This document shows positions 37,447 through 53,803 of a DNA stretch of 62,777 nucleotides, piece by piece; the stretch's first letter is position 1; each line of letters opens with the position of its first letter. The stretch spans positions 1 to 62,777 of the forward strand of contig CALXZI010000004.1 in NCBI GenBank assembly GCA_944393205.1. The letters are read 5' to 3'. The position numbers were made by a program, and so were the translations under genes. The stretch is from an uncultured Alphaproteobacteria bacterium (GTDB taxonomy: Bacteria > Pseudomonadota > Alphaproteobacteria > RF32 > CAG-239). The notes below the pieces were generated by a model. That model saw only the letters and a program-made list of their open reading frames with translations. It was not told the origin of the DNA and did no database searches.

Positions 37447-38847
37447 TTATAATTCTCGTCCACGTTTTGGCGATAATGCCGGCGTTTGCATTATCGGCTC
37501 AAGTTTCTTTTTGGCTAAAATTTTACGCCGAATAATACTGCTGTAACGGTGAGCAATTTCATTGATGCCATTAAAGCGTTCTTTTTCTGCCAGAGTTAGG
37601 CGGGAGAACTTATAATTAATCACTTTAGAAGCGTTTTCATCCGTCTCATTAAAATCGGTTTCAAGTTTGCCTAATAAACGCAAAAAACTTAATTTATTGA
37701 TTTCATTATCGGCAGAAAAAGCTGTTTCAGGGTTAAAGGTATCATAAGATTCAACCAAGTATTCTTTCTGAATAAATTGTCGGCATTGATCATATGTCCC
37801 GTCTTTATTATCCGGTTCAATCCTCAAAGGGCGGTATCCATCATCTTCAATACGACGTGCTTTGTCTAAAACCATCATATTATACTGGTGAATGCTATTT
37901 TCATTGATTTGACGAATGCGATTGTTCAGAATTTTTATTCTTGCTGTTTTTTGCCGCATATCTAAAGTATCTTCGGTTGTTGGCTTATTAGGCAAAGAGG
38001 CTTCTATTGTACGAACTTCTTCATAAATTTTGTGCGTGCGGAGATCAGCTTCGTACAATGCCTGAATTTTTAGTTGTAATTCCATGTCTAAAAGTTTATC
38101 GTCTTTTTTCTGATGTACAATCATCTTTATATCATAATATCTTTTGGCATTTTTGCTTAAGGGCAGGGTAAACCGATTGCGGATTTCATCTTTATTAATA
38201 TAAAATTTTGCTTTCGGCGAATCATGATTGTGTGCAAGAACCTGTGTTATGCGTTCTACGCCTGATAGATATTTGCTGGTAATGGTTAGGCGGATAATAT
38301 CATGCAAACGTTCATTGCTTTGCGGAATTGATTGTAATTTTTCGGCAAAAGCTTCGCGGTCTTCTTTCTCAAAAGCAAGGCGCGCAGCATTATAAAGCGC
38401 TGTTTGATATTCTTTTCCGTATTTTTTTTCAAGTTTTTCAATGGCACGGTCGGCACTTTTCATGCGAGGGAAGATGATGTAAATGGGGTTGTTGAATTTA
38501 TCAACATATTCTAAACGCGTGCATGTGAAAGGGGTGACGGCTTTTAATCCGTAATCTATCGGATTTCCAGAATTGTCACAGTCAACTTTTCCACTTTCCA
38601 AATTAACGGAGCAAGTTCTTTCCGGCCGTCTGAACGTTTCATACAAAGTGCGGTAAACGTCACGGTAAACACTCATACCATCAGCATAGAAATTCAACAA
38701 ATAATCGCGCTCTAGAGGCGAGATGCGATATTCATTGCAGGCTTTTTCAATTGTTTCAAGGTTTTCCGCATCAATTTGTTTTTGAATACGGTCAATTTCT
38801 TCCGTGGGAAGATTAACGACTTTTTTTACATCATATTCTTTTTGCAT
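37447..38847 (-). CDS. RelA/SpoT (RSH synthetase-fold) nucleotidyltransferase domain protein with N- and C-terminal extensions
   Basis: The three RSH-synthetase motifs occur in order. 'FPRMKSADRAIEKLEKK' compares with GRVKxxxSxxEKxxRK. 'HDIIRLTI' compares with DIAGLRI. 'YYDIKMIV...LDMELQLKIQALYEADLRTHKIYE' compares with YRSYHLVV...EIQIRTxAMxxWAxxEHxxxYK. The start is the ATG at 38847, or alternatively 38940. Confidence 0.6.
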   Translation of the reverse strand: MQKEYDVKKVVNLPTEEIDRIQKQIDAENLETIEKACNEYRISPLERDYLLNFYADGMSVYRDVYRTLYETFRRPERTCSVNLESGKVDCDNSGNPIDYGLKAVTPFTCTRLEYVDKFNNPIYIIFPRMKSADRAIEKLEKKYGKEYQTALYNAARLAFEKEDREAFAEKLQSIPQSNERLHDIIRLTITSKYLSGVERITQVLAHNHDSPKAKFYINKDEIRNRFTLPLSKNAKRYYDIKMIVHQKKDDKLLDMELQLKIQALYEADLRTHKIYEEVRTIEASLPNKPTTEDTLDMRQKTARIKILNNRIRQINENSIHQYNMMVLDKARRIEDDGYRPLRIEPDNKDGTYDQCRQFIQKEYLVESYDTFNPETAFSADNEINKLSFLRLLGKLETDFNETDENASKVINYKFSRLTLAEKERFNGINEIAHRYSSIIRRKILAKKKLEPIMQTPALSPKRGREL

Positions 38848-38985
38848 ATCACTCTCAAATCTATTTTGTCTATTTTTTTGAATATGGCACAAAAAAAGTA
38901 TTTTGGCAAGATGTTTTTTTACCGTTTTGCTTATTTGCATTGCATGTTTTAATATTTCGGTTTAAATTCAGTATCAGGAGGCATT

Positions 38986-39456
38986 ATGGAACATAAGACA
39001 AACGTTCAAAGGATGTTGGATAAAAGCGGTGCATTGTATAAGTGTTATCATTATGATGCTGCTGCTGGTTTGAATGGGGAAGAAATTGCGACCGTATTGG
39101 GACAAAACCCGTTGCAGGTGTTCAAAACTTTGGTGACAGTGGCGAAATCAAGGCGATATTATGTTTTTATGATACCGGTGGCCAAAGAATTGGATTTGAA
39201 AAAGGCTGCCATATCCGTCAATGAAAAAAATTTGGAAATGATTAAGCAAAAAGAACTTTTGCCGTTAACCGGCTACGTTCATGGCGGATGTTCTCCGATT
39301 GGTATGAAAAAAGTTTTTCCAACCGTGATTGATTCTAGTGTTTGTGGTTTTGAAACGATAATTTTCAGCGCCGGCCGCATAGGTTTGCAGGTTGAAACAA
39401 CTTTTTCTTGTTTGCAAAAACTTATATCCGTTAAAACAGCGGATATCTGTAGATGA
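38986..39456 (+). CDS. ybaK: Cys-tRNA(Pro)/Cys-tRNA(Cys) deacylase YbaK
   Basis: 'VFKTLV', 'LDLKKAA', 'TGYVHGGCSPIGMKK' and 156 aa. GGAGG RBS. Confidence 0.88.
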   Translation: MEHKTNVQRMLDKSGALYKCYHYDAAAGLNGEEIATVLGQNPLQVFKTLVTVAKSRRYYVFMIPVAKELDLKKAAISVNEKNLEMIKQKELLPLTGYVHGGCSPIGMKKVFPTVIDSSVCGFETIIFSAGRIGLQVETTFSCLQKLISVKTADICR

Positions 39457-39644
39457 TATTTTTTTGCCTGTAACGTGACGGAGATATCATTATGTTCGGT
39501 ACAAGAAAGAAAATTTGAACATCTTTGAGCAAAATTGTGCAATTTGATTATTGTTGCGCAAAATATTACATCTTGGTGCAAGACAATTTGCATCTTTAAC
39601 CTTATTCTGAATATGGTTTTAATATTTAGAAAAGGAATGTAAAT

Positions 39645-41066
39645 ATGTTAGGAAGCGCAAACATCATTGTACAGTCCGGAAACAGCGGCGGGGAAGGCGC
39701 CACTGTAACCGCGGTTAACAAGACCGGCTCGGCGATTACATCGGGTGATAAGGTTTGGCTTAATACTTATAATCGTGTAAGTGACCCTGACCCAAAATTA
39801 GAGAATTATGATGTAGATAATTTTTATGGTGATAAAAATTACGTACCTGATATTTCTGGAAATATTTACTATGTAGATACTAATAGACAGGGAAATACTA
39901 GCTTTTATGCTCTCAATCCTGATGGTGAAACCTATGGTAATGCACAATCTTTACCTTATAATTCCGACTCACCAAATCATATACTTTTTAGAGAATCCGA
40001 TGGACAATTAATATGGTTTGCAAGTGATCCAGCCTTGGGAGCTGCCCCAAAGGTATTAACAGAAACAGCTCTCATTAAAACATCAAGTAATAGTACTTGT
40101 TATCTAAATGAATTGTATGGGTATACTCATAGCTACCCTAAAATGAAATCGTTTGGTAAATGGATTTCCCAGGATAACTTTGAGCTTGACCCCTATACGA
40201 TTATTCCAGATGGTATATCGGCAGATAATATTTATGAGCCTATAAGTGAAGTTTGGAAAGATTTGTCATCAACAAATACCTATTATTATCTTTATAGCTC
40301 AAATAATTCTTGTGATATTTATAAATTAATCATTAATGATGACGATAAGACTGTAACTATTTCTAAAACTTCCCAAGATTCTACGTTATATAATATAACA
40401 TGGGCTTGGGTAACCTCTGATAATAATTATTTAATTTTAGGTTATAATAAGGCGGGTAATTTTACAATTACAACTCCGGTACCAGAATATCAGATAGCTT
40501 TGGCAAAAATTGAGAATGATGGAAGTTTGTCTATTGTTGATTCCTCTACTCTTGGAGAATTTGGCTCTATTCTATCTGGTTATAATGTAGTGTATAATAG
40601 ATTTTGTAATATATTAATAGCCACCAAATATGGTGAAAATCCCGAAGTCTTAATGTTTAATTATAATACTGAATCAAAAGCCTTTGAGAAGCAAATTCTA
40701 AATATTAATTTACCTGAAAATATAACCACACAATCTGCTAATGGTATTTCAGGTTATGTCGGAAGTGATGGAAAAACCCTAATAGTACGATATGGGGTTT
40801 ACCAGGATTCAAGCTGGCTTAGTAGTACTACGGTATACCGTCTAACTACTAGTGGAGAATCAACAGAAGCATTCTTATTCAAATCCTCTTTGGTTAACAA
40901 TGATACCATAACAGGCTATGCCGCCGAAGATGCAGGAGTTGATGCAAGTTTTACGGCGAATGTGGCTTCAAAAAGCGGCGGCGGGGGAGACGACGAACCA
41001 GATTATCCTTATGTGGAACAGACTTGCCGACCTCTTGGCTCAAGCCAGCCGAGGGAAGTTTTATGA
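39645..41066 (+). CDS. Hypothetical protein, 473 aa, compositionally mosaic (AT-rich core)
   Basis: AAAGGAA RBS. Gly/Ser-rich N-terminus 'IIVQSGNSGGEGATVTAVNKTGSAITSGDKVWL', an N/Y/S/T-rich core, and a 'SGGGGDDEPDYPY' tail. No family recognised. Confidence 0.55.
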   Translation: MLGSANIIVQSGNSGGEGATVTAVNKTGSAITSGDKVWLNTYNRVSDPDPKLENYDVDNFYGDKNYVPDISGNIYYVDTNRQGNTSFYALNPDGETYGNAQSLPYNSDSPNHILFRESDGQLIWFASDPALGAAPKVLTETALIKTSSNSTCYLNELYGYTHSYPKMKSFGKWISQDNFELDPYTIIPDGISADNIYEPISEVWKDLSSTNTYYYLYSSNNSCDIYKLIINDDDKTVTISKTSQDSTLYNITWAWVTSDNNYLILGYNKAGNFTITTPVPEYQIALAKIENDGSLSIVDSSTLGEFGSILSGYNVVYNRFCNILIATKYGENPEVLMFNYNTESKAFEKQILNINLPENITTQSANGISGYVGSDGKTLIVRYGVYQDSSWLSSTTVYRLTTSGESTEAFLFKSSLVNNDTITGYAAEDAGVDASFTANVASKSGGGGDDEPDYPYVEQTCRPLGSSQPREVL

Positions 41067-41181
41067 AAAGAAAGAATCTTTATAATGTTATACATGATTT
41101 GTACAAGAAAAGCGAAAACGACTCGCATTTTTATGTACAACAATGAACAGAATTGAACAATATGTTTTATCTGACGAAAAT

Positions 41182-41210
41182 AAAAAAAACTAGGCTTTCC
41201 TAGGTTTTTT
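41182..41210. terminator. Weak hairpin with flanking A-run and T-run
   Basis: AAAAAAAA-CTAGG-CTTT-CCTAG-G-TTTTTT. Confidence 0.4.
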
Positions 41211-41218
41211 ATTGGTGA
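41202..41218 (+). repeat. 17-nt direct repeat, copy 1 (AGGTTTTTTATTGGTGA)
   Basis: Identical 17-mer recurs at 41396-41412. Confidence 0.8.
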
Positions 41219-41231
41219 GCCCGACGGGATT
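41213..41231 (-). repeat. 19-nt exact duplicate of the 3' end (with CCA) of tRNA-Lys; att-like
   Basis: TGGTGAGCCCGACGGGATT is identical to 42095-42113, in the same orientation as the tRNA gene. Confidence 0.75.
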
Positions 41232-41373
41232 GGGTACTCCCGCTGTGCGGGTCCTCCTCGCGTCGTAAGGTTCAAACATCGCATTTTGCCAAGCGATTTG
41301 CTAGGCTCGATGCTCGTTTTCACCAACTTCCCGCTCCGAACCTATGGCTTCTTTCCGAGCCAGACTTACCAAC

Positions 41374-41404
41374 AAAAAACCCCTCCGCAAGGGAGAGGTT
41401 TTTT
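41374..41404. terminator. Imperfect GC-rich hairpin with flanking A-run and T-run
   Basis: AAAAAA-CCCCTCC-GCAA-GGGAGAGG-TTTTTT, with one mismatch in the stem. Confidence 0.45.
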
Positions 41405-41412
41405 ATTGGTGA
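41396..41412 (+). repeat. 17-nt direct repeat, copy 2 (AGGTTTTTTATTGGTGA)
   Basis: Identical to 41202-41218. Confidence 0.8.
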
Positions 41413-41494
41413 TGCTTTCCACACCGTTTACGAACGGAATTTACTTGACTTTATTCCTAACAAAGCTAAACTATGCTGAATAAAATTAATAATT

Positions 41495-41920
41495 ATGCAT
41501 ATGAAAATATTATTAGGTCTCATGTTGTGTTTTTTGAGTATACAAATATATCGAAAAACAGTAGAACAAAAAAAATTATTAAAAAAATTTCTAAACGGTT
41601 CTCAGTCCGTAATGATAAAAGTATTAAACAAATCTCTCAGCTTTCGGAAGCGTTACAGTTTTTTTCAACTTGATGACAGTGTTGCCGAATTGTGTTTTTT
41701 AGGAGAAGTATTGATAAATGGCGTATCCTATAAAGCCACCATTATTGCGCCACCACAAACAAACGTGGGAGAAACATATATAATGAACGGATATTATTAT
41801 CCGAGTTCCCGGCTTTTTATACCCAGCAATGATAATATCTACACTTATAAAGTTAGAAAATACTTCATTCCTTACTTATTTCCCAAAGCAATCATGTATC
41901 GTAAATCCTCTAATTTTTAA
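41495..41920 (+). CDS. Hypothetical small secreted/membrane protein in AT-rich DNA
   Basis: N-terminal hydrophobic 'ILLGLMLCFLSIQIY'. No RBS and very AT-rich, so it may not be a real gene. Confidence 0.35.
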   Translation: MHMKILLGLMLCFLSIQIYRKTVEQKKLLKKFLNGSQSVMIKVLNKSLSFRKRYSFFQLDDSVAELCFLGEVLINGVSYKATIIAPPQTNVGETYIMNGYYYPSSRLFIPSNDNIYTYKVRKYFIPYLFPKAIMYRKSSNF

Positions 41921-42094: not shown

Positions 42095-42170
42095 TGGTGA
42101 GCCCGACGGGATTCGAACCCATGACCCTTTGATTAAAAGTCAAATGCTCTACCGACTGAGCTACGAGCCC
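42095..42170 (-). tRNA. tRNA-Lys (anticodon UUU), CCA encoded
   Basis: The reverse complement reads GGGCTCG-TA-GCTCAGTCGGTAGAGC-A-TTTGA-CTTTTAA-TCAAA-GGGTC-ATGGG-TTCGAAT-CCCGT-CGGGCTC-A-CCA. This is a full cloverleaf with a canonical T-loop. Confidence 0.93.
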
Positions 42171-42324: not shown

Positions 42325-42645
42325 ATGGCTGAAAATAACGTACAAGAGACCACAAAAAGCAGATATGATATTTTGCAAAATGATAAAGGTGAAATCTTGC
42401 TGATTATTCAACAACGCAACGGCGGGCCTGAAAATCCGTTGTTTGTGTATGACGGATCACAATATGCACTTTTATACCGCGGTCAAGAAAGTACGGTTTA
42501 TTTTGATGATATCGCCGAAGGTGCCCGTTCCCCTCTGAAATCCGTGACCTCTATGCAAATCGTGGAAATTAATAATGATGAGGCGGTCAGAGAGTATACA
42601 GTTCCGGTTAGAATCGTTAAGGATGTGAAATCACTGATGGATTAA
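42325..42645 (+). CDS. Small soluble hypothetical protein (106 aa)
   Basis: AGAGG RBS 7 nt before the ATG at 42325. No family recognised. Confidence 0.5.
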   Translation: MAENNVQETTKSRYDILQNDKGEILLIIQQRNGGPENPLFVYDGSQYALLYRGQESTVYFDDIAEGARSPLKSVTSMQIVEINNDEAVREYTVPVRIVKDVKSLMD

Positions 42646-42664: not shown

Positions 42665-42686
42665 AAGGGGCTTGACGCCCCTTTTT
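42665..42686 (+). terminator. Intrinsic terminator 14 nt upstream of the NuoL-like start
   Basis: AGGGGC-TTGAC-GCCCCT followed by TTTT. Confidence 0.7.
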
Positions 42687-42699
42687 AGTAGGTTTTCAA

Positions 42700-44379
42700 A
42701 TGATTGCAAATATTGTTATATGCTTGTTGGCGTTGGGAGTTTTATCTTTGGTAAAAACACGCCGGCGTTATGCTTATGTCATTATCGCCGGTTCTTTTCT
42801 AGCGTTGGTTTTGTTGGCAATGTATTTTTTACGTTCTTGGACAGCCGGCATAGAAACCGAATTCTTGGTATTATGGGACAGCTCGGCTAGCGGTGATATC
42901 AAACTTGTTATCAATTCAATATCACGCAATTATGGTATGATCTTTCCTTTTTTTGTTATTGTATTGGCGGCACTGTTTAATAATCTTTTTTTCCGCTATG
43001 AAAAGAGAAAAAAAGCTTTTTCATCTTTGATGATTTTTATGCTCTGCGCCTTTATTATGCTCATATCCGGAGAAAATTTCGTTCAGATTATTACGTTTGT
43101 GTTTGTTATTGATATTTTAAGCCAAATTCTTATTCAAGATGTTCAAGCAAGTCGCCGTTACGGGATTTATAATTTGGTGGCCGATATGGGGCTGTTTTTG
43201 GTGTTCGCCTTGATGCGCGGCGAACTGGATAATTTGGATATGCCTTCGTTGATTGAATATTATAATGACGGACAATATCAAAATCTGATTATCATCGTGA
43301 TGATGATTAGTTTGTTTATCAAGTTTGGTTTCTTTATTTTCCATAGTTATCTACTTGATTTGCAAAGTGCCAGATTTCATCGTCTGATTTTGATACCCTA
43401 TCTGTCAACGCCTATGGTGGCATTGGTACTGTTTGTTAAGCTTAAACCTTTTCTTATTGAATCGGCACTTTTTTGTTTTGCGTTAGATATCGTTTTGGCC
43501 TTGACAATCTTGTGGGGAGCCGCCGGCGCCGTTATCATGAACAATTTGAAAGAAAAGACAATTTATTTTAGCATGATGGTTACTGCTTTGTTGGTAAAAG
43601 TGGCGGCAAATAAAACGTTTGAATGGAATATTGCATATTCATGGCTACTGATTTGCGGTTTTTTGTTTAACCTTTGTGTTTACTATCTGCATTATTATAC
43701 GAATCGTGATAATACGTTGGCTTTTTTCCGCAAAACACAAGGAGTTGACACTTTGCCGTTGTATATTGTGTCTGGTGCGACAATGATTGTGATTGCGGCA
43801 TTTTGTGCTTGTTTGGTAAGTTTCTACGTGCCGCAAAACAGGAGCTGGATATTGGGGTTTGGCTGTTTGTTTTTACCGGTTGCCGCTAATATGTTTAGCC
43901 GGTTGATAGGTACGGAAACCGATAAACCGGAATCGTTTGCTTTTCAAGCTACCGATTATCGTCCCGTTCCGGTATTGTTAATGATTTTTACCGTTTCGGC
44001 TTTATCGGCGGTTGTCGCACATGCTGCATGGAAAACGGCCGCGGCGGTCATGGGAATTTTTATCTTACTGGTGTATTTGCGTCCTTTGCAACGTTGGTTT
44101 AAAAATGATGATTTTGTCAATCTGCAGCGCGCTGATTTCTTTTCAAACCTCTATACTTTTCTAATCGCGCGCCCGATTCGTTTTACGGGACGTATCTTGA
44201 CTTTGTTGGTTGATTTTGTGTTTTTTGAAAGAATGTTGGTGGCCGCTTTTATGTTGGGCGCCGGCGTTATGGTCCGAAGTTTCCGTCAGATTAATCGGGA
44301 AGGGGGGCTGCGTTATGTTTTATTTGTGATGACGGCGTTTGCAGTGTTGGCTGTGTTTTTGTTGAGAGGTAAAATTTGA
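42700..44379 (+). CDS. nuoL: Highly diverged NuoL-like (complex I/Mrp antiporter-like, PF00361-type) membrane subunit
   Basis: 559 aa, polytopic. 'LFIKFGFFIFHSYLLDL' compares with canonical GKSAQxPxHxWLPDAM. The C-terminal 'ADFFSNLYTFLIARP...RSFRQINREGGLRYV' compares with the NuoL tail FDxLYxxxxxxP...LRxLQTGxxxxY. It is first of three coupled genes upstream of birA-rnj. Confidence 0.6.
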   Translation: MIANIVICLLALGVLSLVKTRRRYAYVIIAGSFLALVLLAMYFLRSWTAGIETEFLVLWDSSASGDIKLVINSISRNYGMIFPFFVIVLAALFNNLFFRYEKRKKAFSSLMIFMLCAFIMLISGENFVQIITFVFVIDILSQILIQDVQASRRYGIYNLVADMGLFLVFALMRGELDNLDMPSLIEYYNDGQYQNLIIIVMMISLFIKFGFFIFHSYLLDLQSARFHRLILIPYLSTPMVALVLFVKLKPFLIESALFCFALDIVLALTILWGAAGAVIMNNLKEKTIYFSMMVTALLVKVAANKTFEWNIAYSWLLICGFLFNLCVYYLHYYTNRDNTLAFFRKTQGVDTLPLYIVSGATMIVIAAFCACLVSFYVPQNRSWILGFGCLFLPVAANMFSRLIGTETDKPESFAFQATDYRPVPVLLMIFTVSALSAVVAHAAWKTAAAVMGIFILLVYLRPLQRWFKNDDFVNLQRADFFSNLYTFLIARPIRFTGRILTLLVDFVFFERMLVAAFMLGAGVMVRSFRQINREGGLRYVLFVMTAFAVLAVFLLRGKI

Positions 44380-45803
44380 TGTTTTTAAACCTAATACCGA
44401 TTATCATTTTTTTACCATTGTTGGGAAGTTTGTTTGTGGCTGGTTCGCGCAATGATGCCGGCGGTTATTCTTATAACGCCGTCAATGTTGCTGTTTGGGT
44501 TGTTTGCTGTAATGTTTTATTAATTTTAAAACTGTTTGCTTCTATAGAAGTTAATTTGGATCAGATACAAGCAATTGTGCAAATTCCTTGGCCGATTGCT
44601 CCGAGCGGTGCTTTGTTTTTTGGAGCCGATATGCTGGGATTGATGATTGTTTTGGGTATACATGGGGCTTTGCTTTTAGGTATTTTGGGTTTGAAAGATT
44701 TTTTATATGGGCAGCGCGGCGTGTTGTTTTTTGCCATGTTCTTTTTGAGCGCGGCAACGGGCTTTTTTATGGCGGCAGATTTGTTTTCATTTTATATGTT
44801 TTTTGTGCTTATGATTTGTCCGTTGTTTGCACAAATCGGTTTAATAAGCAAAGGCAACGCTCAAAAAACGCCATCCAGATTCTTTTTATATAATTTCGTT
44901 GGTGCAATTTTATTGTTGGTGCCGGTGGCGGTAATATATACGATGGAAAATAAGACCGTGTTGATTGCTGATATTGCCATGTTGCAAATGCCGGATGGTT
45001 CAGGTATCCTGATCTGGAGCAGTATATTTTTGGCGTTTATCTTACGGTTGCCGGTATGGCCTTTTCATTATTGGATTAGTTCGGTTAATACGGTTTTGAA
45101 AAATCCATTGGTCTTTACCTGCGTTAACTTATTGCCAATCTCGGGATTGTACGGATTTATTCGTTTTTGGCCGGCAGCGTTACCCGTGGAAATATCATCG
45201 TTGGTTCCTTTTTTTGAAACTTTGTGTGTTATTACAATGTTGTATCTGGCTTTCAGCGGTTACAGTTCTACAAGTTTACGCGATAAAATGTTTTCTTATA
45301 TCTTTATATATTATCTGCTTTATCTTTTAGGTGTTTTTTCACCAACGGACGTCTTAAAACAAAATATCGCTTATTCTTTGTTTGCTTTTATGTTGGTGGC
45401 GGCAGGCATGATCATGATTGTTTTTCATATTGATAATGAGAGCAGTAAACTGCAAAATTCATCCGGCGGCATTTTATGTTTGCAGCCAAAAGCTGCATTT
45501 TCATATGCACTTTTATTATTAGCCGGCATTGGTTTTCCGGTATCGGCGCTGTTTTGGAACAATTTTGTGATTATGTCTGAAATTTTGAATGCAAATGTGT
45601 GGGTAGGGACGGTGGCGGTTTTTACTATATTGCTGACAGCTATTTTTCAGTTGCAAAATTTGTATGATTTACGTGATAAATCGTGTTTGTTGACGGGACA
45701 GGAAAAAGTTTATGATATTGATAATCTGCGTTTTGCCGCCGGTACCATTGTTATGATTGTTTTGTTTTTATCATTTATTAAACCGTTATGGTTTGTGTAT
45801 TGA
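44379..45803 (+). CDS. nuoM: Highly diverged NuoM-like membrane subunit
   Basis: 'AADLFSFYMFFVLMICPLF...SRFFLYNFVGAILLL' compares with ALDLFLFYVFWELMLIPMY...AAIKFFLYTLxGSLLML. 'FLAFILRLPVWPFHYW...LLPISGLYGFIRF' compares with FIAFAVKxPxxPxHTWLPDAH...LLKxGxYGxxRF. The ATG at 44379 overlaps the upstream stop (TGATG). Confidence 0.65.
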   Translation: MFLNLIPIIIFLPLLGSLFVAGSRNDAGGYSYNAVNVAVWVVCCNVLLILKLFASIEVNLDQIQAIVQIPWPIAPSGALFFGADMLGLMIVLGIHGALLLGILGLKDFLYGQRGVLFFAMFFLSAATGFFMAADLFSFYMFFVLMICPLFAQIGLISKGNAQKTPSRFFLYNFVGAILLLVPVAVIYTMENKTVLIADIAMLQMPDGSGILIWSSIFLAFILRLPVWPFHYWISSVNTVLKNPLVFTCVNLLPISGLYGFIRFWPAALPVEISSLVPFFETLCVITMLYLAFSGYSSTSLRDKMFSYIFIYYLLYLLGVFSPTDVLKQNIAYSLFAFMLVAAGMIMIVFHIDNESSKLQNSSGGILCLQPKAAFSYALLLLAGIGFPVSALFWNNFVIMSEILNANVWVGTVAVFTILLTAIFQLQNLYDLRDKSCLLTGQEKVYDIDNLRFAAGTIVMIVLFLSFIKPLWFVY

Positions 45804-47221
45804 CCGAAAGCGAAAAGATGAATGAAATGTTAGGTATATTAAATATTGTTTCCCTCGTTGCCGGTATTTTGTGGCTTATATTGCGTCGCATATGGGGCGA
45901 GGCCTCCGTTAAAGATTATTTTACGGCAACGCAGACGGCGGTGTTGGCCAGTATTGTTTTTTCGCTTTTGTTTGATGAGTATACGCCCTTTGCGCCCTAT
46001 GTCTCGGCCGATGCTTCGGCAACATTGGTTTATATTTTAACGGCCGGTGTTGTATATATATGGCTTTCTTTATCACAAAAATGGTTTTCGGCAGAAAATC
46101 TGCAAGCTAACCTGTTTTGTGTTTTGGCATTGTCGGCGTTGGCGGCGTGCCAGATAGTGAATATTGCCGGAAATTTAGCTGTTATGTTTGTCGGTATAGG
46201 ACTTTTATTGACGGTTAATTATCTGTTTTTGTATTTGAGCCAACAAACGGAAGAACTGCATAACATCTGCAGCCGCTATGGTTTAAGCGCTTTGTTTTTT
46301 GCCGTTTTGGCCTGCGTGTCTTTATATTTGCTTACGCCGTCCGGTTGGGGATTGAAACAACTTGCAGATACGGTATCGTCTTTGAATGTTTCGGAACTTT
46401 ATATGACGGTTGCCGGTATTTTGTTTATCTTTTTGTTTATGTTGGCGATTGCACCGTTGCATTTTTGGTTTGCCGATACAATAGCACCAGCCGTGTTGCC
46501 GGTGGCGGCGTATTTCAGTCTGGTGCCGCAGATTAGTTTATGGACGGCTTTTTTGAAGATTAATTATTCGTTTTTGTATCCGGTGATGGATAATATAGAC
46601 GGCGTTTATATCATATTTGGTATTTTGTCGGTTTTTGCCGGTGCAATCGGCGCTAATACCAGTCGCCATCTACGGAAGATATTTGCTTGCGGCGGTATTT
46701 ATCATCTGGGAGTTATGCTGCTTGTTATTGCTTCGTTTACAGATCAAGCCGTTTTAATCGGTCTGAATTATATGCAAATGTATATTTTGGCCATGACCGG
46801 TATTTATGTCGTTTTTTATGCCTTCAAGAGCAGGGGGGATTATTTGTATAATTTGAATATGGTCGGCGGTTTTGCCAAAGTTCATCCTTTTGTAGCCGGT
46901 GCTTTGTTATTTTTTACGGCATCGCTTATCGGTATGGCGCCGTTACCGGGGTTTGGTGCAATGTGGGCCGTATTAAAAGAATTTACCTCGGCACATCATT
47001 TTGCTCTGATTGCCGTGATGTTAGGCGGGTTGTTGCTGTTGTTGCCGGCGTATTTGCAAGTGGCCAGATCAGTTTGTTTTGCCCAAAAGCAGGAAAATTT
47101 TGACCGAATGGAAAATAATATTTATTTTTACTTGTTTTTATTGGCAGCTTTAATGTTGTTTTTAACAATATATCCGCAATTTTGGGATAACCGTATGCCT
47201 TGGATTATTTTGGCAGGGTAA
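45788..47221 (+). CDS. nuoN: Highly diverged NuoN-like membrane subunit
   Basis: Polytopic. 'LFMLAIAPLHFWFADTIAPAVLPVAAYFSLVPQISLW' compares with GLAFKLGAVPFHMWxPDVYEGAPTPVTAFLSxxPK. It sits directly before birA. The start could be 45788 (overlapping the upstream gene) or the ATG at 45818. Confidence 0.6.
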   Translation: MVCVLTESEKMNEMLGILNIVSLVAGILWLILRRIWGEASVKDYFTATQTAVLASIVFSLLFDEYTPFAPYVSADASATLVYILTAGVVYIWLSLSQKWFSAENLQANLFCVLALSALAACQIVNIAGNLAVMFVGIGLLLTVNYLFLYLSQQTEELHNICSRYGLSALFFAVLACVSLYLLTPSGWGLKQLADTVSSLNVSELYMTVAGILFIFLFMLAIAPLHFWFADTIAPAVLPVAAYFSLVPQISLWTAFLKINYSFLYPVMDNIDGVYIIFGILSVFAGAIGANTSRHLRKIFACGGIYHLGVMLLVIASFTDQAVLIGLNYMQMYILAMTGIYVVFYAFKSRGDYLYNLNMVGGFAKVHPFVAGALLFFTASLIGMAPLPGFGAMWAVLKEFTSAHHFALIAVMLGGLLLLLPAYLQVARSVCFAQKQENFDRMENNIYFYLFLLAALMLFLTIYPQFWDNRMPWIILAG

Positions 47222-47222
47222 G

Positions 47223-47945
47223 ATGGATAATATCGGTTCTTGGTTATGGCTTGATCTGGAAGAAACGCAAAGCACCAATGATGCGGTTGATAGGTGGTGC
47301 CAAGAATGCGGACAACCCTGTGTGGTGACGGCAAAGCGGCAAACGGCGGGCAGAGGGCGGCGCGGTCGCTCATGGATCAGCCAAGAAGGTAATTTGTTTA
47401 TGTCGTTTGCTTTTCCGGCGCCGGTTGAAAATATCGGAGAAATGGCAGTTTTAAGCGGATTGGCCGTTTTAAAAACAGTACGTTGTTTTTGCCCGAATGC
47501 AAACTTGAAAGTTAAATGGCCGAATGACGTTTTAGCTGATGGCGGAAAAATTTCCGGAATTTTGTTTGAACGTGCGACAAACGGCTTTTGGATTATGGGT
47601 ATCGGCATTAATGTGAGGTCAAATCCTTTAAAATCGGTTGCCGGTTATCGGACAATGAGCCTTAATGCTTTGGGTGCTAAAGCGGAACGGATTGAGGTTT
47701 TGCATCAATTTGTCATGCAATGGGACGAACTTATGCTTTTATATCAGCACACTGGTTTTGAGGTTTTGCGTCGGCAATGGCTTGACAATGCGTATAATCT
47801 TGGTAAAACAATAGTTGTTAGACAAGGAACTGCGGAAATATGCGGCATTTTTGCAGGTTTGGATGATGATGGCGCTTTGTTGCTTGATACCGATGGCAAA
47901 ATTAAGAAAATTTTGGCCGGAGATGTGATGTTGAATAACAATTAA
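47223..47945 (+). CDS. birA: Biotin-[acetyl-CoA-carboxylase] ligase (group I, no N-terminal HTH)
   Basis: 'QTAGRGRRGRSWIS', 'KWPNDVL' and 'GKISGIL'. 240 aa. Confidence 0.9.
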   Translation: MDNIGSWLWLDLEETQSTNDAVDRWCQECGQPCVVTAKRQTAGRGRRGRSWISQEGNLFMSFAFPAPVENIGEMAVLSGLAVLKTVRCFCPNANLKVKWPNDVLADGGKISGILFERATNGFWIMGIGINVRSNPLKSVAGYRTMSLNALGAKAERIEVLHQFVMQWDELMLLYQHTGFEVLRRQWLDNAYNLGKTIVVRQGTAEICGIFAGLDDDGALLLDTDGKIKKILAGDVMLNNN

Positions 47946-47953
47946 GGAAACAA

Positions 47954-49612
47954 ATGGAATATAAAAACAAAAGAGGAATTTATTTTTTGCCGCTGGGCGG
48001 CGCCGATGAAATCGGGATGAATATGTATGCATACGGCGTTAACGGCAAATGGATTGTGGTGGATGCCGGATACGGTTTTTTAAATGATGATTACCCAGGA
48101 ATGGATATGTGTTATGCTTCACCGGAGTTTTTGGCGGATTTTAAAGATGATGTGTTGGGCTTGTTTATTACTCACGGACATGAAGACCATATGGGCGCGG
48201 TTGCCCATGTTTGGCCGGCGTTGCAATGTCCGGTTTATGCCACGCCGTTTGCAAGCGGATTGATTAAGGAACGTTTGCGCGAATATCAGATGGATAAAAT
48301 CGTGCCGCTTGAAATTGTGCAAGGCGGCGATGAAATCAGCAAAGGCAATTTTAAGATAAAATATGTGCCGTTGGTGCATTCGGTGCCGGAAACTTGCGGT
48401 TTGTTTATCAGCACGCCTTTCGGTAATATTTTTCATGCGACCGACTGGCGTTTTGACGACGGGCGTTTGGATATGCTGCCGACCGGCATGAAAGAGCTTG
48501 AAGCTGCCGGCGGGCAGGGGATTGATATGTTTGTGTGCGATTCAACCAATGTGATGCTGGAAAAACAACAACCGAGCGAATTTGAAGTGCGGCAAAATCT
48601 GATGACGCTTATCCCGCAAATTGAGGGCGGGCTGATTGTGACGTGCTTTGCTTCCAACCTGATGCGGTTGGAAACTTTGGTGTTGGCCGCCAAAGAGGCA
48701 AATCGGACACCGGTTTTATTGGGGCGGAGTTTGCTGACAAATATGAAAGTTGCCAAAGAATGCGGCTATTTTAAGGATTTACCCAAAGTTTACAAACCGG
48801 AGCAAGTGCAGGGGATTACCGCCGATAAGGCGCTTTATATCTGCACCGGCTCGCAGGCTAACTATCGCAGCGCTTTGAGCATGATTGTCAAAGGCGAAAG
48901 CAAGTATGTCAAACTTTGCGACAGTGATACGATTATATTTTCTTCTAAAATTATCCCCGGCAATGAAGAAAAAATTGAGCATATGCAAGAGCAGATGATT
49001 GATCAAGGCGTTACGGTGATTACCGAAGAGACTGATTTGGTGCATACTTCCGGCCATCCGTCTAAAAACGAATTGCAGGCAATGTATAATATTTTGAAAC
49101 CGAAAATTGTGTTTCCGGTGCATGGTGACAAGCGTTTTATCCGTGAGCATAAGCGCTTTGCCTTAAATTGCGGCATTCAAGACGTGTGTTCGGGGCAAAA
49201 CGGTGATGTGTTCTTTTTGCAAGACGGAAAAATCAGCAAAGAAGAGGAAGTCGCAGCCGATGTTATCGGCGTTGACCGCGGACGTCCGGTGTCCTTAAAC
49301 TCGGATTTGGTGCATAACCGGCGGCGGATTGCCTATAACTGCAGCCTGTTTATCAGCGCGGTTATCGGAGCGGATAACAAAGTTGCGGATTTGGAGATTT
49401 CTTCCATTGATATTCTGGAAGAAAAAGAATGGACTGCGCTGGCGGAAGAAATTAAAGCAAAGGTTGTTCCGCTGATTGAAGAAAAAATCAGCTCATGCGG
49501 CGGGTTGAATGCTGCTGCCAAAGATTTTATCCGAAGCCGCATCCGCAAGATGGTATATCAGGCAACTGACATTAAACCGGTGACGTTTTGCCACATTTAC
49601 CAAGAACAGTAA
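47954..49612 (+). CDS. rnj: Ribonuclease J (metallo-beta-lactamase/beta-CASP)
   Basis: 'LGGADEIGMNMY', 'ITHGHEDHMGA', 'HATDWRFD' and 'VHTSGHPSKNEL'. 552 aa. AAGGAA RBS. Confidence 0.92.
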   Translation: MEYKNKRGIYFLPLGGADEIGMNMYAYGVNGKWIVVDAGYGFLNDDYPGMDMCYASPEFLADFKDDVLGLFITHGHEDHMGAVAHVWPALQCPVYATPFASGLIKERLREYQMDKIVPLEIVQGGDEISKGNFKIKYVPLVHSVPETCGLFISTPFGNIFHATDWRFDDGRLDMLPTGMKELEAAGGQGIDMFVCDSTNVMLEKQQPSEFEVRQNLMTLIPQIEGGLIVTCFASNLMRLETLVLAAKEANRTPVLLGRSLLTNMKVAKECGYFKDLPKVYKPEQVQGITADKALYICTGSQANYRSALSMIVKGESKYVKLCDSDTIIFSSKIIPGNEEKIEHMQEQMIDQGVTVITEETDLVHTSGHPSKNELQAMYNILKPKIVFPVHGDKRFIREHKRFALNCGIQDVCSGQNGDVFFLQDGKISKEEEVAADVIGVDRGRPVSLNSDLVHNRRRIAYNCSLFISAVIGADNKVADLEISSIDILEEKEWTALAEEIKAKVVPLIEEKISSCGGLNAAAKDFIRSRIRKMVYQATDIKPVTFCHIYQEQ

Positions 49613-49636: not shown

Positions 49637-50614
49637 ATGTCTATCATACCCGAAAGATTGAAAAAAGGCGATAAAATCATGGTGATTGCGCCTTCGCGCG
49701 GTTTAAAACTCATTGGTGCCGATTGTCGGCAGATTGCCGAAGAACGCTTGGGAAGTTTGGGTTTGACGGTTGAATTTGCTCCGAACACCACCGATGATAA
49801 TTTTGATATAACGATGTCAGCTTCGGTAGAAAAACGGGCGGCGGATATTATGACGGCTTTTGCCGACAAATCGGTTAAGGCGGTTTTGACGGTTATCGGC
49901 GGTTTTAACTCCAACCAACTGATACGGCATTTGGATTATGAGATTATCCGCAAAAATCCGAAAATCTTTATGGGTTTTTCCGATATTACCGCTTTGCATA
50001 CGGCGATTTATGCCCAGACAGGTTTGGTGACTTATTACGGTCCGCATTACAGCTCGCTGGGCATGAAGAAAGGTTGCGAATATACTTTAGAAAACATGGT
50101 TAACACTTTGTTTGAAGGTGGAAAGCGCGAAATTTTGCCTTCGGCGGAATGGAGCGATGACGCTTGGTTTTTGGATCAGGATAAGAGAGAATTTATCAAA
50201 AACGAAGGTTGGTGGCAAATCCAAGGCGGAACAGCTAAAGGAACAATTATCGGCGGCAATTTATGCACGTTTATTTTACATCTCGGTACGCCGTATCGGC
50301 CGAAGTTTGAAAAAGACACGATTTTGTTTTTGGAAGACGACGAAGAGTCGCACTTGTTGAATTTTGAGCGTAATTTACAGGCGTTGATTAATCAAGAAGA
50401 TTTTAAAAATGTCAAAGGTTTGGTTATCGGGCGTTTTCAAAAGGCTTCCAAAGTTACGCGCGAAAAGCTGGATTTTATCTTAAAAAACAAGCCGGAACTT
50501 AAAAATATGCCGATTATTGCCAATATTGACATGGGACACACGACGCCGATTAATACCATTGCTCTCGGCGGTTATGCAGAAATCAGAGATGGACGCATTT
50601 TTGTAGAAGGTTAA
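49637..50614 (+). CDS. LD-carboxypeptidase (peptidase S66, MccF/LdcA-like)
   Basis: 'GDKIMVIAPS', 'GGFNSNQL' and the nucleophile motif 'GFSDITALH', plus a C-terminal 'MGHT' His. GAGGAGG RBS. Confidence 0.85.
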   Translation: MSIIPERLKKGDKIMVIAPSRGLKLIGADCRQIAEERLGSLGLTVEFAPNTTDDNFDITMSASVEKRAADIMTAFADKSVKAVLTVIGGFNSNQLIRHLDYEIIRKNPKIFMGFSDITALHTAIYAQTGLVTYYGPHYSSLGMKKGCEYTLENMVNTLFEGGKREILPSAEWSDDAWFLDQDKREFIKNEGWWQIQGGTAKGTIIGGNLCTFILHLGTPYRPKFEKDTILFLEDDEESHLLNFERNLQALINQEDFKNVKGLVIGRFQKASKVTREKLDFILKNKPELKNMPIIANIDMGHTTPINTIALGGYAEIRDGRIFVEG

Positions 50615-51114: not shown

Positions 51115-51205
51115 TGCGGTTTATGCCTTTATTGCAATAGGATTTGACAGAATTTTAAATTTTAGATATAATAAATTTAAGTTGTTTATATTCAGGTATA
51201 AGAAG

Positions 51206-52678
51206 ATGAAAAGTAATCCGGCCGCATTTTTAAAATCAGAATATGAAGCTGCCAATGTAGATCCTGTTTTTATGCGTCTGCATGGTAAAAAATATCTTGT
51301 TCCTTACCCATATGTCCGCGATTATAAAGATTACCAAAAAGCATTTTTGAATGATTTTTTTGATATCATGCGCCGCGATTATTTGGCATATCAAAAACAT
51401 AATGTTCCGGTGCAATATATCAGTTGGCACGATAATGACAAACACCGCAAGCTGGTTGTTCCTTATGATTTACGCAATAAGGAAGTTTCACCGCAAGAAG
51501 TTGCCAATCGGATTTTTAAACGTGCTGAAAAAAAATATATTAAAGCCGTTCGTTTGGCCGTGGAGTTAGCAGAAGCATATCCGGAGCGTCCTTATCAAAC
51601 GTTAATTAGTATTGCCCATGTGCGGGACATGCAAAAAGCTCGTTATGAACACCAGTTAAAGCAGGCGCGCGATAAAGCCATATACATTACAAAAAAGGTC
51701 GGGCATTTTTTGGCGCAAAATGCGGTTAAAGCGACCAACAATATCAAAAATATGGATGTGGAAAAACTCAAAATCAAGGCACGGCGGTGGGCCGTGGGTG
51801 TGATGTTGACCACAACCATTACCGGTGCTGTTTATACGGCATTTCAGATTAATGAAAAGCAAGCTGAAAAGAAGGAGATTCAAGCTAAAGATCCACTGGG
51901 GCATATGCAAATGTTTGAGCGATGCCACGATGCAATTAAAGCTAGTCTGGCTTTTGCTGAAAATTTTGCCGGTAGTACATTTAAAGATGGAGAAGGCGTG
52001 CCAACCATTGGTTACGGCTGTACTTATTATTTAGATGCCGAAGGCAAAGGCAGCCGTGAGGTTTCGCCGGTTAAAATGGGCGATAAAATTACAATGGAAG
52101 AGGCCAACACGCAAAAAGAACGTTATTTGCAATTTGAAATTTTGAAACAAGTTCAAGAATATGTCAAAGTTCCGATGGATGAAGAAACCACAATTGCAAC
52201 TTATAATTTTGCATACGTTTTGGGTTCAACCAATTTCAGAAAATCGGAATACCTCAAAGCCTTAAATGAAGGGAAAAAAGGTGAGGAGTTGGTGCGCTAT
52301 CTGACAGGTTTCAGGGTGCAAAAGGGCTTGTTGCCGAGATTTTATTTTATGGGAGCTTTACTTAACGGTAAGATGAAAGTTTCCGATTTTATGGATTTGA
52401 CGGCTGAAGGGTGTTATAACTTAAAAACACGCGATGTTTGTTTGTATGAAAAAGGAAAATTAAAACTTGATAAAGACGGCTTTGCGTATTTTTGTTATGA
52501 TGAGTTGAAAAAAAATATTGAAAAGGCCAAGAAATCACGCCGAAGCAAGGCTTGTGGCGGTGAAAAATGTCCTAAAGTCAGAGAAATTCTGCCACAAACG
52601 GTTCTAGACGGCGTATATGAGATGGAAAACTCAAAAGCACGTATATATTATGCCGATAATATGAGTTTAAGCCGTTAA
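51206..52678 (+). CDS. Bitopic membrane protein with a C-terminal T4-lysozyme-like (GH24) domain and an uncharacterised N-terminal domain
   Basis: Central transmembrane helix 'WAVGVMLTTTITGAVYTAF'. Downstream 'AENFAGSTFKDGEGVPTIGYG' has E-x8-D-x5-T spacing followed by IGYG, as in T4 lysozyme E11/D20/T26. The track start at 51182 is TTG; the ATG is at 51206. Confidence 0.6.
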   Translation: MKSNPAAFLKSEYEAANVDPVFMRLHGKKYLVPYPYVRDYKDYQKAFLNDFFDIMRRDYLAYQKHNVPVQYISWHDNDKHRKLVVPYDLRNKEVSPQEVANRIFKRAEKKYIKAVRLAVELAEAYPERPYQTLISIAHVRDMQKARYEHQLKQARDKAIYITKKVGHFLAQNAVKATNNIKNMDVEKLKIKARRWAVGVMLTTTITGAVYTAFQINEKQAEKKEIQAKDPLGHMQMFERCHDAIKASLAFAENFAGSTFKDGEGVPTIGYGCTYYLDAEGKGSREVSPVKMGDKITMEEANTQKERYLQFEILKQVQEYVKVPMDEETTIATYNFAYVLGSTNFRKSEYLKALNEGKKGEELVRYLTGFRVQKGLLPRFYFMGALLNGKMKVSDFMDLTAEGCYNLKTRDVCLYEKGKLKLDKDGFAYFCYDELKKNIEKAKKSRRSKACGGEKCPKVREILPQTVLDGVYEMENSKARIYYADNMSLSR

Positions 52679-52692
52679 AATCTTTGATTGCC

Positions 52693-53733
52693 CTAAAATA
52701 AAATGTCTTTTGGGTTGGTGACGGGTTTGTTGATTTTCCGGTAAATATAAACAGCAATCGGAACCCCGAGCAACATACCCCAAAGGCCAATCATGGCGTG
52801 GGCAATATATAAAATGATAAGCGTCATGACCGGATTGATATGCATAAACGATGATACAATTCGTGGGTTTAAGACATAAGCTTCCAACAGATGAATAGCA
52901 ATAATCATTAATAAAGCCCATAGGCCGAGTGCCATACCACCGTTGTTGATGGCCATTAAAATAATCGGAACCGAAGAAATCCACATTCCCAATACCGGAA
53001 TGAGGCCGCACATAAAAACAATTGTGCATAACAAGGCGATGGCATTAATATCTAAAAAATACAAACCGATGGCGGTTAATACGGTGTTGATGGCGGAAAT
53101 TAGCAACTGGGCACGGAAATTTTCGCCGACAACTTTGGCAAACAAGATGATACTGTCAGCCGTTTCCCGATAATATTCGGCCAATCGGGTAAAACGCAAA
53201 CGGCGCATTCCGCGCGAAAGTTCCGGCAAATCAAACATAATGAGGAAACTAAACAGCATGGCCAGAAAAAACCATCCGAAATAATGCAAACCTTTTTCAA
53301 GCAATCCGCGAACAATGTTCCAAGCACTAACGACAACAGTTTCCGGCGACAGAGCTTCTTTGATTTGCGGCAGAAGCGGGGCCACTATTTCATTCTGGCT
53401 TAAATTGTCGTCAAACCATATACGAACCGAAGATATGCTTTTCGGCAGTTGCTCGGTGAAATTGATGGCTTCAGATAAAAGCCGTGGCGGAATAAACACT
53501 AAAAACGCACAAACACCCATTAAAAATAAAATATAGATACTGATAACAATGGTGCGGCGGTTAAAATGATACTTGCGACGGATCTTATGGGTGATGCTTG
53601 AAGCAATAAAGCACATGATGAATGTGATAAAAACAAGACCAAACATATTGCGGAACATATACAGCAGGCCTAAAAAAACACCCCAAATAAAATAAACTCG
53701 GTTGGTGCGAATAAACTCTGATATATTCAACAT
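52693..53733 (-). CDS. AI-2E family transporter (PerM/YhhT-like)
   Basis: About 8 transmembrane helices. 'GLIPVLGMWISSVPIILMA' and 'LLEAYVLNPRIVS' fit the AI-2E signature. AAAGGA RBS before the ATG at 53733. Confidence 0.85.
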   Translation of the reverse strand: MLNISEFIRTNRVYFIWGVFLGLLYMFRNMFGLVFITFIMCFIASSITHKIRRKYHFNRRTIVISIYILFLMGVCAFLVFIPPRLLSEAINFTEQLPKSISSVRIWFDDNLSQNEIVAPLLPQIKEALSPETVVVSAWNIVRGLLEKGLHYFGWFFLAMLFSFLIMFDLPELSRGMRRLRFTRLAEYYRETADSIILFAKVVGENFRAQLLISAINTVLTAIGLYFLDINAIALLCTIVFMCGLIPVLGMWISSVPIILMAINNGGMALGLWALLMIIAIHLLEAYVLNPRIVSSFMHINPVMTLIILYIAHAMIGLWGMLLGVPIAVYIYRKINKPVTNPKDILF

Positions 53734-53803
53734 CGCGTTTAATCCTTTCGGCTTGAAAATATTTATATTTATACCGATACCCCCAAGATGGTTTTTATGC
53801 AAG

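Follow-up and report, generated by a model that had tools for sequence, protein, structure and literature searches.

A diverged nuoL-nuoM-nuoN trio, apparently without its canonical proton relay, persists apart from nuoA-K in gut and rumen Alphaproteobacteria

The 62,777-nucleotide stretch of DNA analysed here (the window; contig CALXZI010000004.1 of assembly GCA_944393205.1, from an uncultured Alphaproteobacteria bacterium) carries three consecutive genes for strongly diverged counterparts of the antiporter-like subunits NuoL, NuoM and NuoN, lying directly upstream of birA and rnj. They have no nuoA-K at the locus, they have exchanged most of the charged residues through which such subunits pass protons, and they are maintained by selection across 40 species. 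The trio is probably the distal membrane arm of complex I, kept after deletion of nuoA-K as an L-M-N complex that no longer pumps and would serve a redox-independent role. A heterotrimeric 'pseudo-antiporter', possibly joined by a small neighbouring protein, p106, and having a selectable function that requires neither redox module, quinone nor canonical relay, is a possible but tentative form for that complex to take.

The three open reading frames (ORFs) are present much as the original prediction described them, with 559, 474 and 467 amino acids (aa) and with coordinates re-derived here as 42700-47221. The NuoL-like gene (42700..44379, forward strand) ends in a TGATG overlap at 44377-44381, also anticipated, with the ATG at 44379 that opens the NuoM-like gene (44379..45803, forward strand). 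For the NuoN-like gene there are three candidate starts, at 45788, 45800 and 45818; other assemblies that contain this sequence use the first two, and the ATG at 45818 is the best fit to the N-terminus of the family, giving a gene of 467 aa at 45818..47221 on the same strand. The three genes are tightly packed, and the NuoN-like stop at 47221 falls 1 nt before the birA start at 47223.

By profile score, the M-like and N-like proteins are weak yet significant members of PF00361 (67 and 71 bits, both above the gathering cut-off of 21.5), and neither reaches the cut-off of its own subunit model: the M-like protein scores 133.5 bits against TIGR01972 (NuoM; cut-off 263.8) and the N-like protein 121.2 bits against TIGR01770 (NuoN; cut-off 332.6). 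Family profiles placed each best, and over its full length, with the corresponding subunit of Paracoccus denitrificans (NuoM, E 2.7e-46; NuoN, E 3.7e-44), followed by the plant mitochondrial, cyanobacterial, chloroplast NDH and E. coli proteins, with Mrp subunits appearing later in the ranking. The N-like family is well separated, scores falling from 191 to 66 bits between its members and the nearest canonical NuoN found, that of Roseomonas haemaphysalidis. Within the M-like protein the most conserved parts are transmembrane helices (TM) 7, 8 and 12. The PF00361 homology expected of the trio was found in two of its members and not in the third, and the TIGRFAM cut-offs are not reached.

That third member, the L-like protein, had no match in Pfam (E <= 0.1) or in NCBIfam, and only a few members of its family carry a precomputed PF00361 match. 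Searched against PDB sequences, its family profile found only the C-terminus of Paracoccus NuoL (residues 587-700, E 4.5e-5), a stretch covering the lateral helix and its anchor together with the residues leading up to them; a profile alignment with E. coli NuoL was weak (hhalign E 0.085). Among 1.84 billion representative proteins the profile matched 207, all belonging to a single family of ~550 aa, and canonical NuoL was absent from those matches. As profile searches gave nothing or weak matches, the identity of the L-like protein was made to rest on structure prediction and fold search. In the AlphaFold2 model (predicted local distance difference test score, pLDDT, 80; predicted template modelling score, pTM, 0.81), TM2 is followed by a beta-hairpin, TM7 is broken, two long helices (480-505 and 510-532) form a lateral helix at 480-532, and the chain ends in a TM at 535-558. 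When it was compared with the PDB by Foldseek, 49 of the best 50 matches were NuoL, ND5 or NdhF chains and one was an MrpA model, with a best E of 3e-13, TM-scores of 0.5-0.7 and ~550-690 aligned columns each. The predicted protein thus has the architecture specific to NuoL, a 14-TM core followed by a lateral helix and a C-terminal anchor TM, and by sequence comparison and modelled fold the three genes correspond, in order, to nuoL, nuoM and nuoN.

Where the trio departs from complex I is in its charged residues, which were mapped by alignment to the NuoL, NuoM and NuoN of E. coli and Roseomonas and are numbered here as in E. coli. The relay residues are identical in those two organisms although overall identity between them is only 35-41%. 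The canonical relay, comprising TM5 Glu, TM7 Lys, TM8 Lys/His, TM11 His/Lys and TM12 Lys/Glu, was not found intact in the trio. In the M-like protein, E144 corresponds to V143 of the window, the Glu being kept only in a deep, Scatocola-type clade (14 of 35); K234 is replaced by R223 and E407 by N395, with Arg and Asn respectively in 35 of 35; K265 aligns to I254, a position that is hydrophobic in all (Ile, Leu or Val) and preceded by an invariant Pro, P253; and H322 and H348 have become Y312 (mostly Tyr) and F337 (mostly Phe). In the N-like protein, E133 and K247 fall at variable positions occupied in the window by G128 and Q238, K217 is replaced by M208 (Met, Leu or Phe in 33 of 34) and K395 by M382, Lys being kept in 13 of 34. 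In the L-like protein, D178 and K229 survive as D162 and K208 in 42 of 42 sequences, whilst E144 is replaced by F135 (Phe or Cys), with an invariant Asp138 one turn later, and H254 by P233 (mostly Pro). Its H334, H338 and K342, like its K399 and D400, are lost in regions where the alignment is weaker.

Loss of charged channel residues had been claimed for the M-like and N-like proteins from the sequence by eye, and alignment to E. coli and Roseomonas confirms it. One M-like change, read as LLK to LLP, is a true loss that had been misplaced, since K265 aligns to I254 beside the invariant P253 rather than to the Pro itself. For the L-like protein, the pattern IKF..H..LLD had been taken as retained; its His is not conserved in the family, where it is mostly Gln. 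The structural Pro, Gly, Trp and His residues around the broken helices are retained, and several replacements are conservative, 'frozen' ones (K to R, E to N), so that the pattern read from the alignments is one of a retained fold from which the titratable chain has been removed. A conserved polar core is left: D138, D162 and K208 in the L-like protein, and D134, R167, R223, H230, N394 and N395 in the M-like protein. The relay losses are old, because they are common to the whole family, and the fact that the deep Scatocola-type clade still has two of the residues, M E144 and N K395, suggests that the relay was eroded stepwise. As the relay has been replaced in each member of the trio, which moreover has no redox module to power it, the three proteins would not pump protons by the canonical mechanism, and we infer that canonical proton transfer has been lost from the trio.

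It would be natural to read such losses as decay, as the original prediction did in offering a decaying relic of the membrane arm as one of two possibilities. That reading is rejected by the way in which the genes have been kept. All three ORFs are intact and of conserved length in 40 species, at 26-74% aa identity to the proteins of the window. The ratio of non-synonymous to synonymous divergence (dN/dS), taken from genome pairs in which dS is unsaturated, is 0.07-0.17 for the L-like gene, 0.02-0.08 for the M-like gene and 0.06-0.28 for the N-like gene, as against 0.08-0.21 for birA and 0.02-0.07 for rnj, and more diverged comparisons with the window agree. There is thus strong evidence in these ratios for purifying selection on the trio comparable to that on birA; selection of this strength indicates, at the level of coding sequence, that the trio is translated and needed.

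One related locus, L010, was at first sight an anomaly in these comparisons, with an L-like protein 60% identical to that of the window and an rnj 99% identical. Fast evolution of the aa sequence was rejected as the cause. Synonymous divergence is itself mosaic, with dS of 0.12 for rnj, 0.16 for the S66 peptidase gene that follows it and 0.37 for birA, compared with 0.9-1.4 for p106, L, M and N, and points therefore to a homologous recombination breakpoint near birA, between otherwise distinct species-level genomes.

The position of the trio tells of its origin. Directly 3' of it, as had been claimed, are birA, encoding biotin-protein ligase (47223..47945, forward strand; TIGR00121, 162 bits; PF03099 and PF02237), and then rnj, encoding RNase J (47954..49612, forward strand; TIGR00649, 324 bits; PF22505 and PF07521). 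The related set comprised 48 loci from 40 species-level gut or rumen Alphaproteobacteria metagenome-assembled genomes (MAGs), and the order L-M-N-birA-rnj recurs wherever a related locus is long enough for it to be seen; rnj lies 3' of birA in every relative whose contig extends that far, as well as in Roseomonas. When species-representative genomes were scanned, the L-like gene turned up in 40 species, every one represented by a gut, faecal or rumen MAG and nearly all labelled Alphaproteobacteria, two of them as Candidatus Scatocola. In Roseomonas (locus L050) the order is nuoE-F-G-H-I-J-K-L-M-N-birA-coaX-rnj. Because Roseomonas shows nuoL-M-N-birA-coaX-rnj, the L-M-N-birA-rnj of the window can be read as what was once the 3' end of the nuo operon, unmoved from its ancestral position. 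The gene order nuoN-birA-rnj, which the original prediction had given for Alphaproteobacteria, is borne out by this locus, and with it the description of the trio as an orphan, strongly diverged nuoL-M-N.

Of the remainder of the operon there is no trace nearby. No homologue of nuoA-K was found by tblastn, using E. coli NuoA-K and Roseomonas NuoF-K, in the ~730 kb made up by the window and the 48 related loci, which upholds the earlier claim of their absence from the vicinity; the sole matches came from NuoI and fell on ferredoxin-type domains such as that of PFOR. Upstream gene content varies by species, and in the deep clade consists of genes unrelated to complex I (MerR, DUF4186, GGGtGRT). 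Nor do other partners take the place of nuoA-K. The conserved block (p106, L, M, N, birA, rnj and S66) holds no gene for MrpB, C, E, F or G, no DabA/MpsB-like gene (DUF2309, PF10070) was called in any locus, and there are no [NiFe]-hydrogenase large or small subunits and no NuoH-like subunit at the locus. When the trio was scanned with NCBIfam, Mrp models scored below Nuo models and Hyf models were marginal. Membership of an Mrp, DAB or Hyf system was considered and rejected, the partner genes being absent.

For the rest of the genome, a guide is given by published work on gut alphaproteobacteria assumed to be relatives. In a survey of near-complete gut genomes, the complex I entries of Azospirillum sp. 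CAG:239 are limited to a NuoE-like, a NuoF-like and one NuoN-like protein, and its listing is empty for bc1, complex II, the synthesis of menaquinone or ubiquinone, and oxidases of any kind; for Acetobacter sp. 46_36 no complex I protein is listed (Supplementary Table S2, PMC6431628). The NuoE/F-like proteins have been assigned, as HymAB, to an [FeFe]-hydrogenase of the HymABC type, and the organisms also have PFO (PMC4967309). Beyond the one 'NuoN-like' entry in that supplementary table, no description of the trio was found in the searchable literature. Hydrogenosomes retain NuoE and NuoF, which differs from the case here, where it is the membrane arm that remains.

Immediately upstream of the trio lies p106 (42325..42645, forward strand), a gene for a predicted soluble protein of 106 aa. 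Across relatives it shows 51-83% identity to the protein of the window, a higher degree of conservation than that of L, M or N; a database search returned 86 clusters at 59-83% identity, confined to the lineage. The gene is directly 5' of the L-like gene in most species and lies ~6 kb away on the opposite strand in six deep-clade species. Its AlphaFold2 model is beta-rich (pLDDT 84), and p106 gave no match in Pfam or NCBIfam, no fold match in the PDB and, against PDB sequences, a best E of 0.018 to an unconvincing ligase fragment. It may be a companion of the trio, as a candidate only. Between the two, in a 54-nt spacer with a folding energy of -15.4 kcal/mol (RNAfold), is an intrinsic-terminator-like hairpin (42666..42687, forward strand; GGGGC-TTGAC-GCCCC followed by T5) that ends 12 nt 5' of the L-like ATG. 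A consensus terminator scan did not list this hairpin, which was read from the sequence; RNAfold places a hairpin and U-run at the same point in nearly all relatives, with differing stem and loop sequences. The terminator that had been noted before the NuoL-like start is present; it belongs to the conserved upstream p106 gene and is likewise kept in relatives. As the hairpin follows p106, transcription of L-M-N in the window would depend either on read-through past it or on a promoter that overlaps p106 at its end.

Taken with this evidence, the favoured history would run as follows. A lineage of strictly fermentative Alphaproteobacteria of gut and rumen would have lost nuoA-K by deletion in its ancestor, leaving L-M-N before birA-rnj. 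To judge from the retained lateral helix and anchor, the three proteins would still assemble in the inner membrane, clamped by the lateral helix of the L-like protein. The product would be a redox-independent 'pseudo-antiporter' membrane complex, with either a structural role or a use for the conserved polar core that remains. Several points weigh against this account. Assembly into a single L-M-N complex is itself surmised from modelled features. The mapping of the C-terminal half of the L-like protein (TM11-TM12) depends on the weak alignment already mentioned (hhalign E 0.085). The invariant R223, H230, N394, N395 and D134 of the M-like protein could signify a changed transport chemistry rather than a dead one. 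A cluster-member look-up gave no link from the trio family to the CAG:239 accessions, including the NuoN-like CDB52610, and the genome-wide absence of nuoA-K, mrpB-G or other partners is argued from the MAG literature, with relatedness assumed, together with the residue changes.

The first of the rival explanations takes the polar core at face value. Cation movement has been reported for isolated NuoL and MpsA, and the trio might likewise work on its own as a cation/proton transporter resembling MrpA/MrpD or the NuoL-like MpsA of S. aureus, driven by membrane potential or an ion gradient and needing no redox module. Selection is indeed strong on residues of the membrane core, TM7, TM8 and TM12 of the M-like protein are its most conserved parts, and the L-like protein keeps both the TM6 Asp (D162) and the TM7 Lys (K208), besides the invariant D138 one turn from the lost TM5 Glu. 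However, the TM5 Glu, the TM7 Lys (in M and N), the TM8 Lys/His and the TM12 Lys/Glu are replaced nearly throughout, a deep clade alone keeping M E144 and N K395, the Arg and Asn that have replaced some of them are unable to shuttle protons, and the conserved block lacks MrpB, C, E, F and G as well as any DabA/MpsB-like gene, all of which makes such a transporter unlikely. The 'repurposed stand-alone cation/proton module' of the original prediction was right in that the trio is functional and stands alone at its locus, but a cation/proton function is not suggested by the sequence, because the L-like protein, in common with the other two, is missing the relay residues needed for ion translocation. 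About as improbable is the proposal that the trio forms the membrane part of a new complex with non-Nuo subunits, whether p106 or a hydrogenase- or Rnf-type module encoded elsewhere, a proposal that is compatible with the favoured account. In its support, p106 occurs only in this lineage, is better conserved than any of the three membrane proteins, lies directly 5' of the L-like gene in most species and has a predicted fold without known relative. Against it, a conserved terminator stands between p106 and the L-like gene, p106 is found ~6 kb away on the opposite strand in six deep-clade species, and housekeeping genes apart there is no other conserved neighbour.

Two further explanations would make the trio less unusual. 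It could belong to an ordinary complex I whose genes are divided between loci, nuoA-K lying elsewhere in the genome. This is very unlikely, given that relay residues which E. coli and Roseomonas share without exception have been lost from each member of the trio, that scores fall far under the NuoM and NuoN cut-offs, that nuoA-K is cleanly absent from its ancestral operon position in 40 species, and that gut genomes assumed to be related lack NuoA-D, NuoH-K, quinone synthesis and oxidases (PMC6431628). Alternatively, the trio could be a decaying relic that survives only as a passage for transcription to birA and rnj. The strong divergence from canonical subunits would accord with this, as would the packing of the genes into one unit with the essential birA and rnj, the N-like stop lying 1 nt before birA. 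A transcriptional spacer, however, would not preserve aa sequence, and these ORFs are intact and length-conserved in 40 species down to 26-33% identity, have dN/dS of 0.02-0.28 and share many invariant residues, so that a relic of this kind is scarcely credible. The reading that best accommodates the evidence is that of a distal complex I arm conserved in fold and stripped of its pump.

Set beside known systems, the trio is closest to the NuoL/M/N of alphaproteobacterial complex I (Paracoccus denitrificans, PDB 8qby), with which it shares the order L-M-N-birA-rnj, full-length homology of M and N, the predicted NuoL fold with lateral helix and anchor, and the positions of Pro, Gly, Trp and His. 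It differs in having no nuoA-K at the locus, in scoring below the family cut-offs, in its replaced relay, in an L-like subunit undetectable by Pfam and NCBIfam, and in a host that is a fermentative anaerobe without quinones or oxidases, according to the literature on assumed relatives. Mrp (Mnh/Pha) systems likewise combine several PF00361-type subunits without a redox module, and MrpD and MrpA are among the weaker PDB matches, but the block around the trio contains no MrpB, C, E, F or G, its best matches are to Nuo, and the Lys/Glu residues shared by the two are missing. DabB/DabA, S. aureus MpsA/MpsB and cyanobacterial NdhD3/F3-CupA are single NuoL-like translocators with a soluble partner. 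They resemble the trio as antiporter-like proteins outside complex I, p106 being a small soluble neighbour, whereas the trio has three subunits in ancestral order, p106 is unlike DabA/MpsB (PF10070) and CupA, and a terminator intervenes.

The tRNA-Lys, the 106-aa ORF and the hairpin before the L-like ATG that had been described are all present, at a spacing of 12 nt in the case of the hairpin. The conserved block is bounded upstream by the tRNA-Lys(UUU) gene (42095..42170, reverse strand; ARAGORN, Rfam 73 bits). The 3' end of this tRNA (tggtgagcccgacgggatt) occurs again at 41207-41231 and, as a weaker repeat, near 41403-41412. In relatives, integrase, primase, Fic and autotransporter elements lie directly 5' of p106 (L051 4148-9685; L052 1-9540), and from such sequence features the tRNA appears to be an integration hotspot. 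Positions 37447-41920 of the window hold ORFs without Pfam match, of 497 aa (reverse strand), 473 aa and 141 aa (both forward strand), and differ from a same-species assembly, L001, which has an 897-aa gene there; this is probably variable or mobile DNA beside the tRNA. Within it, ~330 nt of non-coding sequence at 41082-41412 are 87% identical to L033 9062-9397, above the level of the neighbouring coding DNA, and hold the tRNA-end repeat as well as terminator-like hairpins on both strands. Rfam identified only the tRNA in the window, matches to the AT-rich spacer and to 41082-41412 being sub-threshold and those in the spacer far below gathering scores.

Downstream, an LD-carboxypeptidase (peptidase S66) gene (49637..50614, forward strand; PF02016 and PF17676) follows rnj in most loci and is the last member of the syntenic block in closer relatives. 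Beyond it, at 51182-52678, the window encodes a 498-aa protein with a phage-lysozyme domain (PF00959), which is also found 3' of the block in the same-species contig L002. Two paralogues of the AI-2E family transporter, at 52693-53802 (reverse strand) and 57274-58494 (forward strand), lie either side of pta-ackA. The rest of the window is ordinary chromosome, with a dcw-type cluster for cell division and cell wall, glycogen genes, folA, thyA, lepA, PFOR and pta-ackA, the last two confirming what had been claimed of the window.

To our knowledge, every characterised antiporter-like subunit of complex I and Mrp depends on a chain of protonatable Lys, Glu and His residues, and these proteins have been studied as energy-converting pumps. 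The surprise for complex I specialists lies in an L-M-N set that is conserved with its relay erased, in a host that probably has no quinones, under selection like that on an essential enzyme. The family supplies natural 'locked' variants (K to R and E to N) of interest to research on the coupling mechanism of complex I, and the case documents how relatives of the mitochondrial lineage dismantle complex I as they adapt to anaerobic life, the membrane arm being what remains here. If the trio still forms a complex, an ancient membrane module would have an unrecognised role, whether structural or through a different transport chemistry. Should the 'pseudo-antiporter' prove true, these bacteria would represent a natural experiment in which the distal arm of complex I has been kept and rewired for a new role in strict anaerobes.

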